DNA of 24,254 nt from a virus (taxonomy: Duplodnaviria; Heunggongvirae; Uroviricota; Caudoviricetes). The notes under the pieces were generated by a model. It had not been told where the DNA came from. It worked only from the letters and a program-made list of their open reading frames with translations, and made no database searches. Location: positions 1-24,254 of the IMG/VR virus record IMGVR_UViG_2734482781_000007; one strand, 5' to 3'. Every line of letters starts with the position of its first letter. The first letter of the stretch is position 1. This document shows, one piece after another, positions 4,185 to 11,098 of the stretch. The position numbers and the translations under genes were made by a program.

Positions 4185-4195
4185 GGGATCGCAGC

Positions 4196-4399
4196 ATGAA
4201 CAAAAAGACCTGGTTTCGCGCATACATGTGGGCGCTGGTATGCGTCCTCGTTTCTCTCATTCTGTATGCAGGACTACTCCCCCGAATGATTTCATCAGAC
4301 AGCTCCTTCCTGGTATTGCTGGGCATTTTCATTGCCATGCTGTACCCGGCAGGCGTTGTTCGCCTTTTCAGTAAGTACATCAAGGAAATCAAACAATGA
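4196..4399 (+). CDS. Small inner-membrane protein (two predicted TM helices), partner of the SPFH gene
   Basis: 67-aa ORF with hydrophobic stretches WALVCVLVSLILYAGLL and FLVLLGIFIAMLYPAGVV; stop overlaps the SPFH start (ATGA at 4396-4399). Confidence 0.5.
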   Translation: MNKKTWFRAYMWALVCVLVSLILYAGLLPRMISSDSSFLVLLGIFIAMLYPAGVVRLFSKYIKEIKQ

Positions 4400-5226
4400 A
4401 GAAACTCAAACTCTTTCAGATTATCCCGCTTTTTGCCGCCATCCTGCTGGTTGGTTGCGATCGCGTTGAGCCAGGTAATGTGGGCATCAAAGTCAACAAA
4501 CTGGGCGACGACAAAGGCGTCGGCGAAGTGGTTGGCGTTGGCCGCTACTGGACTGGCTGGAATACCGAGGTTTACATCTTCCCGACCTTCAAACAAATGA
4601 AGACCTACGATGAGCCGTTCAGCTTCCAGATGAGTGACGGCACAACCATCGGCTATCACATCGGTGTGGCCTACAAGGTTGATCCATCCAAAGTTACTAC
4701 AGTGTTTCAGACCTACCGCAAAGGCGTGGATGACATTACCGACACTGACCTGCGCCAGAAGATCGCCGATGCACTCAACCGACTGGCCAGCAAAATGACC
4801 ACCGACAAATTTATCGACGGCGGGAAATCTGAACTACTGGATGCAGCCCTTAAAGACATTCAGGAGGAAATGACACCCATCGGTATTCAGGTAATGAGCC
4901 TCTCATATGTGGGTAAGCCGGAGTACCCGTCAACCGTTATCGACAGCATTAATGCCAAAGTCACGGCAAACCAGAAAACCCTGCAACGCGAACAGGAAGT
5001 CAAGCAACGCGAAGCAGAAGCCAACATGTTGCGCGCAGAAGCTGCCGGACAGGCTGATGCCATTCGCACAAAAGCCCAGGCTGAAGCCGACGCCATTCGT
5101 TTACGCGGTGAAGCTCTGCGCCAGAATCCCGGCGTTATGGAGCTGGAAGCAATCAACAAATGGAACGGCACGCTGCCGCAATACATGACCAGCAACACCG
5201 CTGTTCCGTTTGTTCCGGTGAAGTAA
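4396..5226 (+). CDS. SPFH/band-7 (stomatin/flotillin/HflK-C-like) lipoprotein
   Basis: 276-aa ORF; signal peptide with lipobox LLVGC; SPFH-type core; C-terminal Ala/Glu/Gln-rich coiled coil (QREQEVKQREAEANMLRAEAAGQADAIRTKAQAEADAIRLRGEALRQ). Confidence 0.75.
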   Translation: MKKLKLFQIIPLFAAILLVGCDRVEPGNVGIKVNKLGDDKGVGEVVGVGRYWTGWNTEVYIFPTFKQMKTYDEPFSFQMSDGTTIGYHIGVAYKVDPSKVTTVFQTYRKGVDDITDTDLRQKIADALNRLASKMTTDKFIDGGKSELLDAALKDIQEEMTPIGIQVMSLSYVGKPEYPSTVIDSINAKVTANQKTLQREQEVKQREAEANMLRAEAAGQADAIRTKAQAEADAIRLRGEALRQNPGVMELEAINKWNGTLPQYMTSNTAVPFVPVK

Positions 5227-5232
5227 TTAAAC

Positions 5233-5257
5233 CCGGCCAGTGAAAATCGCTGGCCGG
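5233..5257 (+). terminator. Stem-loop just after the SPFH gene (8-bp stem CCGGCCAG/CTGGCCGG, 9-nt loop); T-run lies 13 nt downstream
   Basis: Perfect inverted repeat at 5233-5240 and 5250-5257; T7 run at 5271-5277 is too distant for a canonical intrinsic terminator. Confidence 0.35.
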
Positions 5258-5394
5258 AGCAGTATCAGGATTTTTTTAGTATGCCGTTCTCACAAAAAAA
5301 CCGCTTGCCATGCCGCAATCAGTCAGGTTACATTTCCGTTGCATCTCATAAAACGGGTGCCGGGTTTCGCAGCCTGCTGATCAACAAAGCGCAC

Positions 5395-5415
5395 AACCGC
5401 GCCAGCGGTTTTTTT
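5395..5415 (+). terminator. Rho-independent terminator-like hairpin (AACCGC-GCCA-GCGGTT followed by TTTTT)
   Basis: 6-bp stem, 4-nt loop, immediate T-run, in the roughly 370-bp non-coding gap after the SPFH cassette. Confidence 0.5.
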
Positions 5416-5597
5416 GTGCGTACCGCATTGCCGCACATTTTTTCGCATCAGAATTATGGTGGGGCGTACGGGGCCGACTTCGGTCGGGCCGGGTTTTCTT
5501 TGTTGACCGGTACTGCGAACCTCGTACGTCTCGCCACCCACAGTTTCGCAGCTCTGGATGGTGAGTATTCAAAACTTACCAACAAAGAGGCCACACC

Positions 5598-5828
5598 ATG
5601 GCAAACCGCAAACAGCACCGCACTATCGCGGAGCGTCGTCACATCCAGACTGAAATCGATCGCAGACTCACCCGCGCTGCACACATCGCCTTTATCATGC
5701 AATCCAACACATTGCACAGACTCAACAACACTATTTCAGCCGACTACTGCGCCGCTGTATTCAGCTATCTGGCGGAAGACCTCCTGTCTCTTCAGGATCT
5801 CATCCAGCAGCAAAACAAACTCCATTAA
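5598..5828 (+). CDS. Hypothetical early protein
   Basis: 76-aa ORF with AAAGAGG SD upstream of the ATG; basic N-terminus (MANRKQHRTIAERRHIQTEIDRRLTR). Confidence 0.5.
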   Translation: MANRKQHRTIAERRHIQTEIDRRLTRAAHIAFIMQSNTLHRLNNTISADYCAAVFSYLAEDLLSLQDLIQQQNKLH

Positions 5829-5900
5829 TTCCTGTTCCGGGCCTTTCCTGCACCTTGCGGCGGGAGGCCTTCGCACATCTGTAACAAGAGGATTGCCGCA

Positions 5901-6266
5901 ATGATTCTCGCCAACGACTTTCTTGAATACCTGCTCAACACAGAGCGTGATCTTGCCGTTCGCGTGCGTGACCGTTATGACATGTACCTGAAATCCCTGC
6001 CTGTACCGCAGCTCGCTGACGGAAAAATTGTTATTGATGGCCGCTACATGATTGACAGCCACGAGGGAAATTACAGGCTTTACCGCATTGAAGGCGGCAC
6101 CCCGTCCGTTATTGGCATTTACCAGCGCCCATCCTCTGCGATCGTCGATGTGATTGCAGACAGCATCCGCATCACACATCACTATGCCGACACAGAAGAC
6201 ACCGTGCTGGAAATTCAGCGGCTGGCTACCGTCTGCCGCGACACCCTGAATGGCATGACGAAGTAA
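5901..6266 (+). CDS. Hypothetical early protein immediately upstream of A
   Basis: 121-aa ORF with AGAGGA SD-like sequence upstream; directly followed by the A gene. Confidence 0.5.
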   Translation: MILANDFLEYLLNTERDLAVRVRDRYDMYLKSLPVPQLADGKIVIDGRYMIDSHEGNYRLYRIEGGTPSVIGIYQRPSSAIVDVIADSIRITHHYADTEDTVLEIQRLATVCRDTLNGMTK

Positions 6267-9171: not shown

Positions 9172-10131
9172 ATGAAAATTTGTATCGACGACGGCTCCAC
9201 CAACATCAAGCTGGCATGGACTGAGAATGGCGAACGCCGCAACGCCATCAGCCCGAACAGCTTCAAGTCGGAATGGTCTGCGCCGTTCGGTGGCATGCAA
9301 CCCGCGAACTACATGCTTGATGGCGTGCGCTATGGTTTTGATCCGGTCAGCGATCGCTTTGTCCAGACGACCGACACGCAATACCAGTACAGCGATGTGA
9401 ATGTAATCGCCATTCATCACGCGCTGGTCAAATCAGGCATCACGCCACAGGAGGTGGATGTGGTTGTCACCCTGCCACTGAGCGAGTATTTCGACACAAA
9501 CGCACAGCCGGACATGGCCAACATCAACCGCAAAAAAGCGAACGTTATGCGCCCGGTGGAGTACCAGAACGGTGAGGCATTCACTATCCGTAACGTGCGG
9601 GTTATGCCTGAATCCATTCCGGCAGGCTTTAAGGCACTGGCTGACATGAGTCCGTTTGAATCCCTGCTGATTGTGGATTTGGGCGGAACCACGCTGGATG
9701 TGGCAAAGGTTCAGGGGCAACTGGCAGGCATCAGCCAGGTATTTTGCGATCCACACGTAGGCGTTTCACTGATGACCGATGCCGTGCTGTCGGTGATGGC
9801 CACCAACGGTATGCGTACCAGCCACCACATCGCCAATACCATTATCGAACATCGCCACGATGAAGCCTGGCTGCGCCAGCACATCCACAATGACGCGCAT
9901 TACGCCAGCCTGGTGGCGGTTATTCGTGAAAAGGAAGAAACACTGAAACAACGCGTGATCCGCGCGCTGGCGGTTTTTTCGGGTTACGGGCGGGTGATGG
10001 TTGTCGGTGGAGGGGCGGAGATTGTGGCACCCGCTATCCGCGAAGCCTGCGGAGTTAATGCGACTTTCATCGCGGACGGGGTGCCACAGTTTGCTCTGGT
10101 TAATGGGCTGTACGCAATGGACAAGGAGTAA
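9172..10131 (+). CDS. parM: ParM/StbA-family actin-like segregation ATPase
   Basis: 319-aa ORF; N-terminus MKICIDDGSTNIKLAW closely parallels plasmid R1 ParM (MLVFIDDGSTNIKLQW as recalled); actin-fold motifs VDLGGTTLDVA and VVGGGAEIV; AAGGA SD 8 nt upstream. Confidence 0.8.
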   Translation: MKICIDDGSTNIKLAWTENGERRNAISPNSFKSEWSAPFGGMQPANYMLDGVRYGFDPVSDRFVQTTDTQYQYSDVNVIAIHHALVKSGITPQEVDVVVTLPLSEYFDTNAQPDMANINRKKANVMRPVEYQNGEAFTIRNVRVMPESIPAGFKALADMSPFESLLIVDLGGTTLDVAKVQGQLAGISQVFCDPHVGVSLMTDAVLSVMATNGMRTSHHIANTIIEHRHDEAWLRQHIHNDAHYASLVAVIREKEETLKQRVIRALAVFSGYGRVMVVGGGAEIVAPAIREACGVNATFIADGVPQFALVNGLYAMDKE

Positions 10132-10492: not shown

Positions 10493-11089
10493 TCAGAATT
10501 TAGTATGCAATTTATCTACCAATCGCTTAGCCTCATTAAGCAGTTTTTGGTATTCCCTGCTATCGTTTTCCTGATCTTCATACGCTCGCCGAACACGCCA
10601 TCGAAGAGCAAGGCATTTTAAGTTCCGGTAAAACCTCGGATTACGCTTGCGGCACTCTTCCATATAAGGTTCAAAATGGACATCAAGAAAGATTAAGGTA
10701 GAACCATAAACACGATATAGATACCGCTCATCATACAAACCGTTATTCACGGCATTGGCACAACGCTCCCATTCATTAAAGATGAGCTTTAACGCTTTTG
10801 AACCATCTGTTTGAGAATATTCTTCTTTTCCCCAGTCTGCGATTGGGAAATTGTAGCGGTCCTTGTAGATACGCAGCACTTCAGACCACGCCTCAACTAT
10901 GTCTTTATTGCGTTTGTATGCCGCCTCAAAGTCCAACGAGTTTTTTTCGCGCGACGTCTTTCTTTGATTTCGTATACTAATCACTGCAATAAGCGCCCCT
11001 GCCACCCCCGGGTAGAAGGTAGGGCTGGAGTTCCAGATGTCTGAAAGAAACTTCCATCCACCACAAAGAATAGAAAGCACTAGATCCAT
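10493..11089 (-). CDS. Membrane-anchored hypothetical protein, AT-rich hotspot cargo (candidate phage-defence or exclusion protein)
   Basis: ORF 10493-11098; most likely start is ATG at 11089 (198 aa) because the ORF-track start is TTG. N-terminal hydrophobic segment (DLVLSILCGG...PGVAGALIAVISI), then a roughly 150-aa charged soluble domain with no recognised motif. Base composition visibly more AT-rich than flanking prophage DNA. Confidence 0.6.
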   Translation of the reverse strand: MDLVLSILCGGWKFLSDIWNSSPTFYPGVAGALIAVISIRNQRKTSREKNSLDFEAAYKRNKDIVEAWSEVLRIYKDRYNFPIADWGKEEYSQTDGSKALKLIFNEWERCANAVNNGLYDERYLYRVYGSTLIFLDVHFEPYMEECRKRNPRFYRNLKCLALRWRVRRAYEDQENDSREYQKLLNEAKRLVDKLHTKF

Positions 11090-11098
11090 TATTTTCAA

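Follow-up and report, generated by a model that had tools for sequence, protein, structure and literature searches.

A mobile pair of genes for a predicted SPFH lipoprotein and a two-helix membrane protein in the early operon of a P88-like prophage of Escherichia coli

The DNA analysed here (24,254 nt, positions 1 to 24,254 of IMG/VR virus record IMGVR_UViG_2734482781_000007, referred to below as the window) is a P88-like prophage of Escherichia coli (genus Xuanwuvirus, P2 family), in which a minus-strand integrase and C repressor are followed by cox and by an early operon that terminates with the replication protein GpA. Two overlapping open reading frames (ORFs) on the plus strand of this early operon, 4196..4399 (67 amino acids, aa) and 4396..5226 (276 aa), encode a small two-helix membrane protein and an SPFH (Band 7) domain protein, respectively. 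The view that the pair constitutes a mobile two-gene membrane module, composed of members of PHROG 1130 and PHROG 200 and separate from both the NfeD-SPFH and the HflK/C systems, is well supported. The locus is no new gene, since the same cassette is already in GenBank as gp11/gp12 of phage P88 (NC_026014, 'membrane protein' and 'lipoprotein'; KP063541, 'putative SPFH domain protein'), with 98.6% protein identity and no substantial difference from the window pair, annotated there and uncharacterised. The kind of machine, an SPFH scaffold with a small membrane partner, is likewise familiar. The near-universal two-helix partner, which is often unannotated and sometimes fused, nevertheless appears to define, with the SPFH protein, a distinct two-component module that is lipid-anchored, faces the periplasm and has a large reservoir in phages; a description of it was not found in the searchable literature.

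The SPFH assignment of the 276-aa product is carried by a Pfam match to PF01145 (Band_7/SPFH) over residues 23-209, with E=1.8e-30 and 106.7 bits (gathering cut-off 23.6), and is accompanied by a match to PHROG 200 'lipoprotein' (E=9.4e-112); an initial annotation, made from the DNA letters, had proposed the domain and named a missing profile match as its disproof, which did not occur. The SPFH domain proper (Pfam envelope, 4462..5022) consists of a beta-sheet plus helices in the AlphaFold2 (AF2) model. It is preceded by a putative lipoprotein signal peptide (4396..4458), as had also been claimed: the N-terminus, MKKLKLFQIIPLFAAILLVG followed by CDR, reads as a basic n-region (MKKLK), a hydrophobic core and the lipobox LVGC (L18-V19-G20-C21, agreeing with the pattern [LVI][ASTVI][GAS]C used here), with Asp22 at position +2. 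Of 141 family representatives, 125 retain the lipobox Cys and the other 16 have a plain hydrophobic transmembrane (TM) anchor; in the SSU5-type plasmid versions GY replaces GC, giving uncleaved-anchor variants. Asp at +2 is a classical inner-membrane retention signal in E. coli; among 20 Cys-bearing close enterobacterial homologues this residue is Asp in 17 and Glu in three. We infer that the protein is exported, lipidated at Cys21 and held on the periplasmic face of the inner membrane, a location suggested by Asp or Glu at +2 in the enterobacterial members, by the GY anchor variants and by fused forms with three TM helices, which are described below.

The AF2 model (mean pLDDT 73.7) comprises the SPFH alpha/beta domain, one unbroken helix of 65 residues (aa 179-243; 4930..5124) and 30 C-terminal residues that are unstructured in the monomer. 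The long helix, which answers to the C-terminal coiled coil of the initial annotation and to the cage-wall 'coiled coil' of SPFH oligomers, was aligned with the coiled coil of prohibitin-2 in a profile search of the PDB (E=7e-4). Further towards the C-terminus, K-W-N-G-T-L-P (5158..5178) represents the family signature KW[DN]GxLP, in which W256 is conserved in 141/141, G258 in 138/141 and P261 in 132/141 representatives; the motif is compatible with an oligomer and is no proof of one. Comparison with the PDB by Foldseek yielded full-length matches with E-values from 1e-13 to 1e-7 to prohibitin (8rrh), HflK/C (7vhq/7wi3), erlin, stomatin, flotillin, major vault protein and QmcA-YbbJ, the three top families all being oriented away from the cytoplasm. 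The nearest solved proteins by sequence profile were prohibitin-2 and HflK, at marginal E-values. Prohibitin (8rrh) is the best match among solved structures by both sequence and fold, and some homologues are annotated as 'prohibitin family protein'. The label 'serine protease' found on related genes (L05 of phiP27, NC_003356; Stx2 phage records; Erwinia phage Pastis) was rejected, as no protease domain is present in Pfam or NCBIfam searches; it probably goes back to 'membrane protease subunit', a former COG name.

The 67-aa partner has two hydrophobic segments, a basic N-terminus and a basic tail of 12 residues, with the conserved core Y..LLP.MISS...V..G......P, and should adopt an N-in/C-in topology in the inner membrane. 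It is a real gene and no chance ORF because it matches PHROG 1130 'membrane protein' (E=1.3e-22). A word-index homologue search with the partner returned near-identical E. coli sequences only, and a Pfam search revealed no NfeD or OB-fold domain, its sole match being a sub-threshold one to RseC_MucC (E=0.032). The stop codon of the partner and the start codon of the SPFH gene overlap in ATGA (4396..4399), and an overlap or close abutment recurs in most homologous loci; the translational coupling with an upstream 67-aa membrane protein that had been put forward at the outset is what this overlap predicts.

Linkage of the two genes was assessed with a purpose-built partner hidden Markov model (HMM) run on fetched DNA around SPFH genes, and is tight and ancient, fusion included. 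On IMG/VR contigs the partner was adjacent in 80/80 cases (78 full-length). In a second sample, 80 loci from a species-level genome collection covering many phyla, the HMM located the partner at 62 (56 directly upstream, three within 1 kb upstream and three fused), always on the same strand, and gave no matches elsewhere than upstream or fused. Inspection of the 18 loci missed by the HMM disclosed nine adjacent diverged two-helix ORFs, five fusions and four loci without an evident partner, bringing the total to about 76/80. Of the sampled phages, N4, MY01, pHCM2, Ostro and Piffle have the partner next to the SPFH gene; in Vequintavirinae it lies one gene away, and it is also present in N4-like, Pseudomonas and Stenotrophomonas phages; U47 and FIfi106 have a weak or plausible equivalent two to three genes upstream. 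In one P88-like viral contig (L020) the partner is frameshifted or truncated.

Fusions were detected by the HMM in 16 of the 150 best cluster representatives, 15 being N-terminal and one (P0148) C-terminal, and an N-terminal extension of 70-119 residues is present in about 21 of 141 representatives (approximately 15% of family clusters). Several of the fused forms lack an internal Met, which marks them as genuine fusions. In P0001 (347 aa, eight member sequences, on a 94-kb P1-like plasmid contig) a P1-type partner is naturally joined in frame to the SPFH protein. The fusions agree with the predicted topology, in which two helices end in the cytoplasm and a third helix leads outward to an SPFH domain on the outside. 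The lipobox Cys is invariant in 19/19 aligned fusions, and, as a speculation, the fused forms may still be cut and lipidated. Other fused domains giving functional clues were not present in the distant relatives examined.

The pair is contained in a 1102-bp accessory cassette (4189..5290, plus strand, bounds taken from relatives), which consists of a ribosome-binding site, the partner ORF, the SPFH ORF, a 3' hairpin and a U-run and is located in the early operon, with ead/Ea22 before it and the isrK/C4 RNA region after it. When the window is compared with Citrobacter phage Shae_phiSM, homology breaks off at 4188, just past the ead/Ea22 stop codon, and restarts at 5291, the slot in that phage being occupied by a 183-aa helix-turn-helix (HTH) protein. 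In vB_EcoM-569R5 and four other records the slot is empty, the ead stop running directly into sequence corresponding to window position 5281 onwards, and in phage P88 the same two genes occupy the same place at 92% nucleotide identity. Three states of the slot are known (HTH gene in Shae_phiSM, empty in the 569R5 type, SPFH pair in P88 and the window), and the only sequence shared at the cassette junctions is 'ATG'. The right-flank backbone was found in 874 of 5426 complete E. coli genomes (coverage at least 80%) and the full cassette in 145, so that roughly one in six prophages with this backbone carries the cassette. Its accessory status among P2-like phages is supported, because the slot is empty or differently filled in relatives and only about 145 of about 874 genomes with the backbone have the cassette; the early operon of P2 itself has no counterpart of the pair, as had been stated in the initial annotation. 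No promoter-like site was found in scans of the window cassette or of the P1-like region, and in phiP27 the sole site on the plus strand falls inside the partner ORF, the site counts being at chance level, for which reasons a promoter belonging to the module itself was rejected. From its position, the pair should be transcribed with the early operon, which in lysogens of P2-type phages is silenced by the C repressor.

The pair had been viewed as an oddity of a P2-like early region, a framing that was given up because lambdoid Stx/phiP27 phages and P1-like phage-plasmids carry the module too, with 87-93% nucleotide identity, and because it also occurs in strictly virulent phages and in bacterial chromosomes. 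The part of the gene encoding the mature SPFH protein (window about 4450-5193/5226) has counterparts near int-xis in phiP27 and many Stx2 phages (92.5% DNA identity) and, in P1-like phages, between dmt and ban (87%). At the phiP27 and P1-like loci two-helix ORFs (62 and 78 aa), for which neither phiP27 nor the examined P1-like record has an annotation, overlap the SPFH start. The stretch between dmt and ban, which in reference P1 presumably holds tciA/B/C and tRNA genes, is filled by the SPFH pair in the P1-like phage MH422554, which suggests another variable cargo slot. Across the P88-like, P1-like and phiP27 versions the mature SPFH proteins are 96-98% identical, the partners 22-43% and the signal peptides 32-42%, with a sharp mosaic breakpoint at about codon 19-20 (window 4447-4453). 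Recombination that moved the SPFH core among old partner alleles could have produced this mosaic, as could diversifying selection on the partner.

In a translated search the SPFH family was found in 683 of 50,697 phage records (more than 1%), and strictly virulent carriers include N4, N4-like Schitoviridae, Vequintavirinae, Bruynoghevirus and Kolesnikvirus. More distant SPFH matches were obtained with MbpS of Staphylococcus Kayvirus (about 25% identical), with jumbo, crAss-like and Lak phages and with haloarchaeal viruses. The family is also present in 675 plasmids (632 of them non-mobilizable), the sampled rows being phage-plasmids of the P1 type (about 93% identity) and of the SSU5/pHCM2/pMT1 type (about 76%), and in 716 of 5,426 complete E. 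coli genomes (approximately 13%). An all-against-all profile search collected 2887 cluster representatives at E<=1e-3. In Dyella the module (for example at loci L110 and L126) lies in a chromosomal neighbourhood common to 7/10 other species, with a BlaR1-like protein and a BlaI-like repressor upstream and putative hemerythrin and ribonucleotide reductase genes downstream, the neighbours being tentatively identified from N-terminal sequences only. The site is apparently a conserved chromosomal, non-phage location, which indicates that the module has a cell-autonomous function that phages repeatedly adopted.

A mechanism that would accommodate these observations, and that is proposed tentatively with slightly less than even confidence in it as a whole, is a prohibitin- or HflK-like dome that covers the inner membrane from the periplasmic side and has the partner as its membrane part. 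Both proteins would be co-produced from the early transcript after infection or induction and would be silent in the quiet lysogen, an early-lytic timing suggested by the lack of a promoter-like site within the cassette. The 67-aa protein would enter the inner membrane as an N-in/C-in hairpin, and the 276-aa protein would be exported and lipidated at Cys21, with Asp at +2 retaining it, in enterobacteria, at the inner membrane facing the periplasm. Oligomerisation through the 65-residue helix and the KW[DN]GxLP tail could then produce a dome over a patch of inner membrane, as in prohibitin, HflK/C and erlin. The two-helix partner may serve as a transmembrane 'fence' or anchor, which HflK/C and prohibitins have in the same chain; this would explain both the constant adjacency and the fusion in about 15% of family clusters.

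The role favoured for such a structure, which is a guess and is more probably wrong than right, is to insulate or stabilise a region of the inner membrane early in infection, for example by hindering the DNA entry of a second phage or by protecting the membrane. A function in replication or lysogeny control is not envisaged. Insulation or exclusion is favoured, also over control of FtsH, because the module is expected to act early, is predicted to be sited where phage DNA crosses, is optional and traded cargo in temperate phages yet is kept by virulent ones, and has a gp17-family neighbour in N4. That the module occurs so widely, in virulent phages as well as in Dyella chromosomes, speaks for a generic membrane role. 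Immediately upstream of the N4 pair (isolate PMBT57, locus L086) lies a gene (913-1227) that matches Pfam GP17, P22 'superinfection exclusion gene product 17' (E=2e-56; PHROG 1510); the gene table of PhiSH19 (Vi01-like) gives the same gp17-family neighbour, together with 205 unannotated nt in which a partner ORF could lie. A stronger form of this proposal, unlikely when taken as a whole, sees in the pair a widespread and hitherto unrecognised phage 'membrane-compartment' device. The SPFH subunits would build a nanocage on the periplasmic side, equipped with a transmembrane fence of its own, and would thereby sequester entry channels, FtsH or other inner-membrane proteins during infection. Such sequestration would be a new, structural way of excluding superinfecting phages or of protecting the membrane; arms-race selection would act on the hypervariable partner and on the signal peptide, and the cage subunit would stay near-constant. 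If the favoured role were right, functional analogues would be T4 Imm and Sp, P22 SieA, HK97 gp15 and the Cor/Llp lipoproteins, small phage envelope proteins that are often accessory and are early or made by the lysogen. None of these has a sequence or family match to the window pair.

Several points weigh against the dome and its insulating role. The AF2 model of the monomer is only moderately confident, with a C-terminus of pLDDT below 50. Most non-enterobacterial members have Ser or Thr at +2, which by E. coli rules would direct them to the outer membrane, so that the enterobacterial rule does not settle their destination; Arg at +3, as in the window protein, lies outside the classic strong retention contexts. 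Partners that are only 22-43% identical serve SPFH proteins that are 96-98% identical, so any specific contact between the two must rest on very few residues, and the cellular copies in Dyella show that the module needs no phage context. Support for exclusion is weak and limited to gene position, early timing and the P22-gp17-like adjacency (N4 and the PhiSH19 table), and we know of no exclusion phenotype for SPFH proteins. The searchable literature contributes annotation-level mentions and analogies to HflK/C, and no experiment on a phage SPFH lipoprotein or its partner was found in it. Exclusion and abortive infection, both raised in the initial annotation, are guesses. Against PADLOC-DB 2.0 the SPFH protein matches 0 families and the partner has only a marginal match over 21 residues (PDC-M18B, E=0.0078), and assignment to a known defence system was rejected; other accessory ORFs of the window were also negative.

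Resemblance to known SPFH systems raises two other explanations. The protein has the SPFH fold, long helix, C-terminal cap segment and predicted periplasm-facing orientation of E. coli HflK/HflC-FtsH (PDB 7vhp/7vhq, 7wi3, 9cz2; fold E about 1e-13), and it might act as an HflK/C mimic, its dome contacting FtsH at the latter's periplasmic domain or competing with host HflK/C, so that FtsH proteolysis of phage or host proteins, and with it lysis-lysogeny or takeover, would be altered, as several genome papers have proposed by analogy and as the initial annotation had suggested for lysis-lysogeny decisions. The matches to the HflK and HflC sequence models are weak, however, with 23.5 and 24.3 bits for TIGR01933 and TIGR01932 of NCBIfam, far under the family cut-offs of 159.4 and 134.4, and the cassette and all related loci examined have a single SPFH gene and no K/C-type paralogue pair, on which grounds orthology was rejected. 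The lipid anchor and separate two-helix partner also differ from the N-terminal TM segment that HflK and HflC have in the same chain. Members of the family are frequent among phages that are strictly virulent (N4, Vequintavirinae, Bruynoghevirus, Kayvirus) and thus make no lysogeny decision, which, with the poor HflK/C scores, weakens the idea of an FtsH modulator, and its presence in chromosomes further argues against a lysis-lysogeny role; to our knowledge, moreover, P2-type phages do not use FtsH-controlled regulators. FtsH modulation is held to be unlikely. An NfeD-SPFH operon with a degenerate NfeD is very improbable indeed, although the gene order (a small membrane protein upstream of, and overlapping, the SPFH gene) resembles such operons (QmcA-YbbJ, PDB 8z5g; YqiJK; YuaF-FloT), the small protein being co-translated with the scaffold, and QmcA-YbbJ, in which the partner TM helices are located with the cage, is among the fold matches. 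The window partner, of 67 aa with only a 12-residue tail, has no NfeD or OB-fold domain and the wrong topology, so identity with NfeD was rejected; the SPFH protein, judging from its N-terminus, is exported and lipidated, whereas NfeD-linked SPFH proteins face the cytoplasm; and the families are unrelated by sequence. The likeness to NfeD-SPFH pairs noted in the initial annotation therefore stands as an analogy only. A 2009 survey (Hinderhofer et al. 2009, PMC2636767) likewise found no NfeD partner for the periplasm-facing subfamilies, neither for SPFH4 nor for HflK/C.

Three further explanations place the pair in lysis, virulence or toxicity, all of them improbable. As a lysis-timing or secretion helper the scaffold would organise or restrain holins, spanins or Sec-dependent lytic enzymes, which is reminiscent of the distant homologue MbpS of Kayvirus, located between lysK and tgl beside a holin-like protein and suggested in the literature to be a secretion helper; that homologue is only about 25% identical, the window pair lies in the early operon at a distance from the P2-type lysis genes, and the N4-like, P1-like and phiP27 pairs are not beside lysis genes either, so this explanation is given little credence. 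Slightly less credence is given to a lysogenic-conversion or virulence lipoprotein that benefits the host, e.g. through envelope fitness or immune stimulation. Its moron-like spread across temperate phages would fit, as would the prophage 'HflK/C-like' protein PM0222 of Pasteurella multocida, reported as a virulence factor and TLR1/2 agonist and likened here by description only; the pair, which has no promoter-like site to itself, lies in the early operon under repressor control, however, and the family is abundant in virulent phages. Marginally less probable again is an abortive-infection or toxin-restraint pair, in which the small protein would be a membrane-damaging effector restrained by the SPFH cage until triggered: small two-helix proteins can form pores, the partner has the weak and very short PDC-M18B match, and the pair occupies accessory slots in temperate phages, but the SPFH protein matches no PADLOC model, and the stable 1:1 fusions, the presence in virulent phages and the conserved Dyella site fit a structural partner better. 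Membrane insulation by a partnered dome is preferred to each of these.

Regarding classification, the family may belong to the 'p-prohibitin' group SPFH4, described in the same survey as diverse, unstudied and probably periplasm-facing (Hinderhofer et al. 2009, PMC2636767); by description, it is set apart from that published account, so far as accessible, by its conserved two-helix partner, lipoprotein anchoring and phage reservoir. Membrane structural biology currently devotes much attention to SPFH scaffolds (prohibitin, stomatin, flotillin, HflK/C), and the periplasm-facing prokaryotic subfamilies other than HflK/C are uncharacterised. The constant or fused two-helix partner provides a defined, minimal two-component system that is easily expressed, imaged and deleted in E. 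coli, and the module moves between P2-like, lambdoid/Stx, P1-like and SSU5-like elements. Annotations can be corrected for the 'serine protease' SPFH gene, for the unannotated partner ORFs and for a spurious 205-207-aa coding sequence (CDS) over the isrK/C4 RNAs. If phage exclusion or membrane protection is true, the module would be relevant to host range in phage therapy and to the cargo of Stx phages and phage-plasmids.

The interval between the gpA and portal genes of the window, the region where P2 has tin and old, contains a ParM-type actin-like segregation protein (9172-10131, plus strand; Pfam StbA_N and ParM_N, E=1e-82) and a DUF4760 protein (10493-11098, minus strand); neither matched a PADLOC defence model.

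Directly after the SPFH stop codon there is a hairpin with an 11-bp stem (5233..5257, plus strand; free energy -23.4 kcal/mol, z=-3.5), which lies within the cassette bounds, is conserved in P88 and is missing from the empty slot. It is no canonical terminator, because the U-run begins 12-14 nt past it. The initial annotation had the pair followed by hairpins, which is correct for this one; the remaining hairpins belong to an RNA module of the backbone. This comprises the Hfq-binding small RNA isrK (5341-5415, plus strand; Rfam, 66 bits) and the C4 antisense RNA (5452-5541, plus strand; Rfam, 78 bits). The positions of a promoter-like site (5305-5334) and of two terminator-like hairpins (5395-5410, 5479-5493) suit these two RNAs, and since the isrK/C4 region is retained in relatives without the cassette, all hairpins but that at 5233-5257 were rejected as parts of the module. 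Together with the 76-aa 'derepression protein' ORF that follows them (5598-5828, plus strand; PHROG 3688, Pfam Derepression below cut-off), the isrK/C4 RNAs look like an RNA-controlled antirepressor unit of the P1-immI / Gifsy-1 type, here within a P2-family early region, that belongs to the phage backbone. A 207-aa ORF (5281-5904, plus strand) covers isrK/C4 and, in a different reading frame, overlaps with the derepression gene. When translated it gives low-complexity junk; vB_EcoM-569R5 has the corresponding ORF annotated as a CDS, and the 205-207-aa CDS over these RNAs is most likely a spurious gene call.

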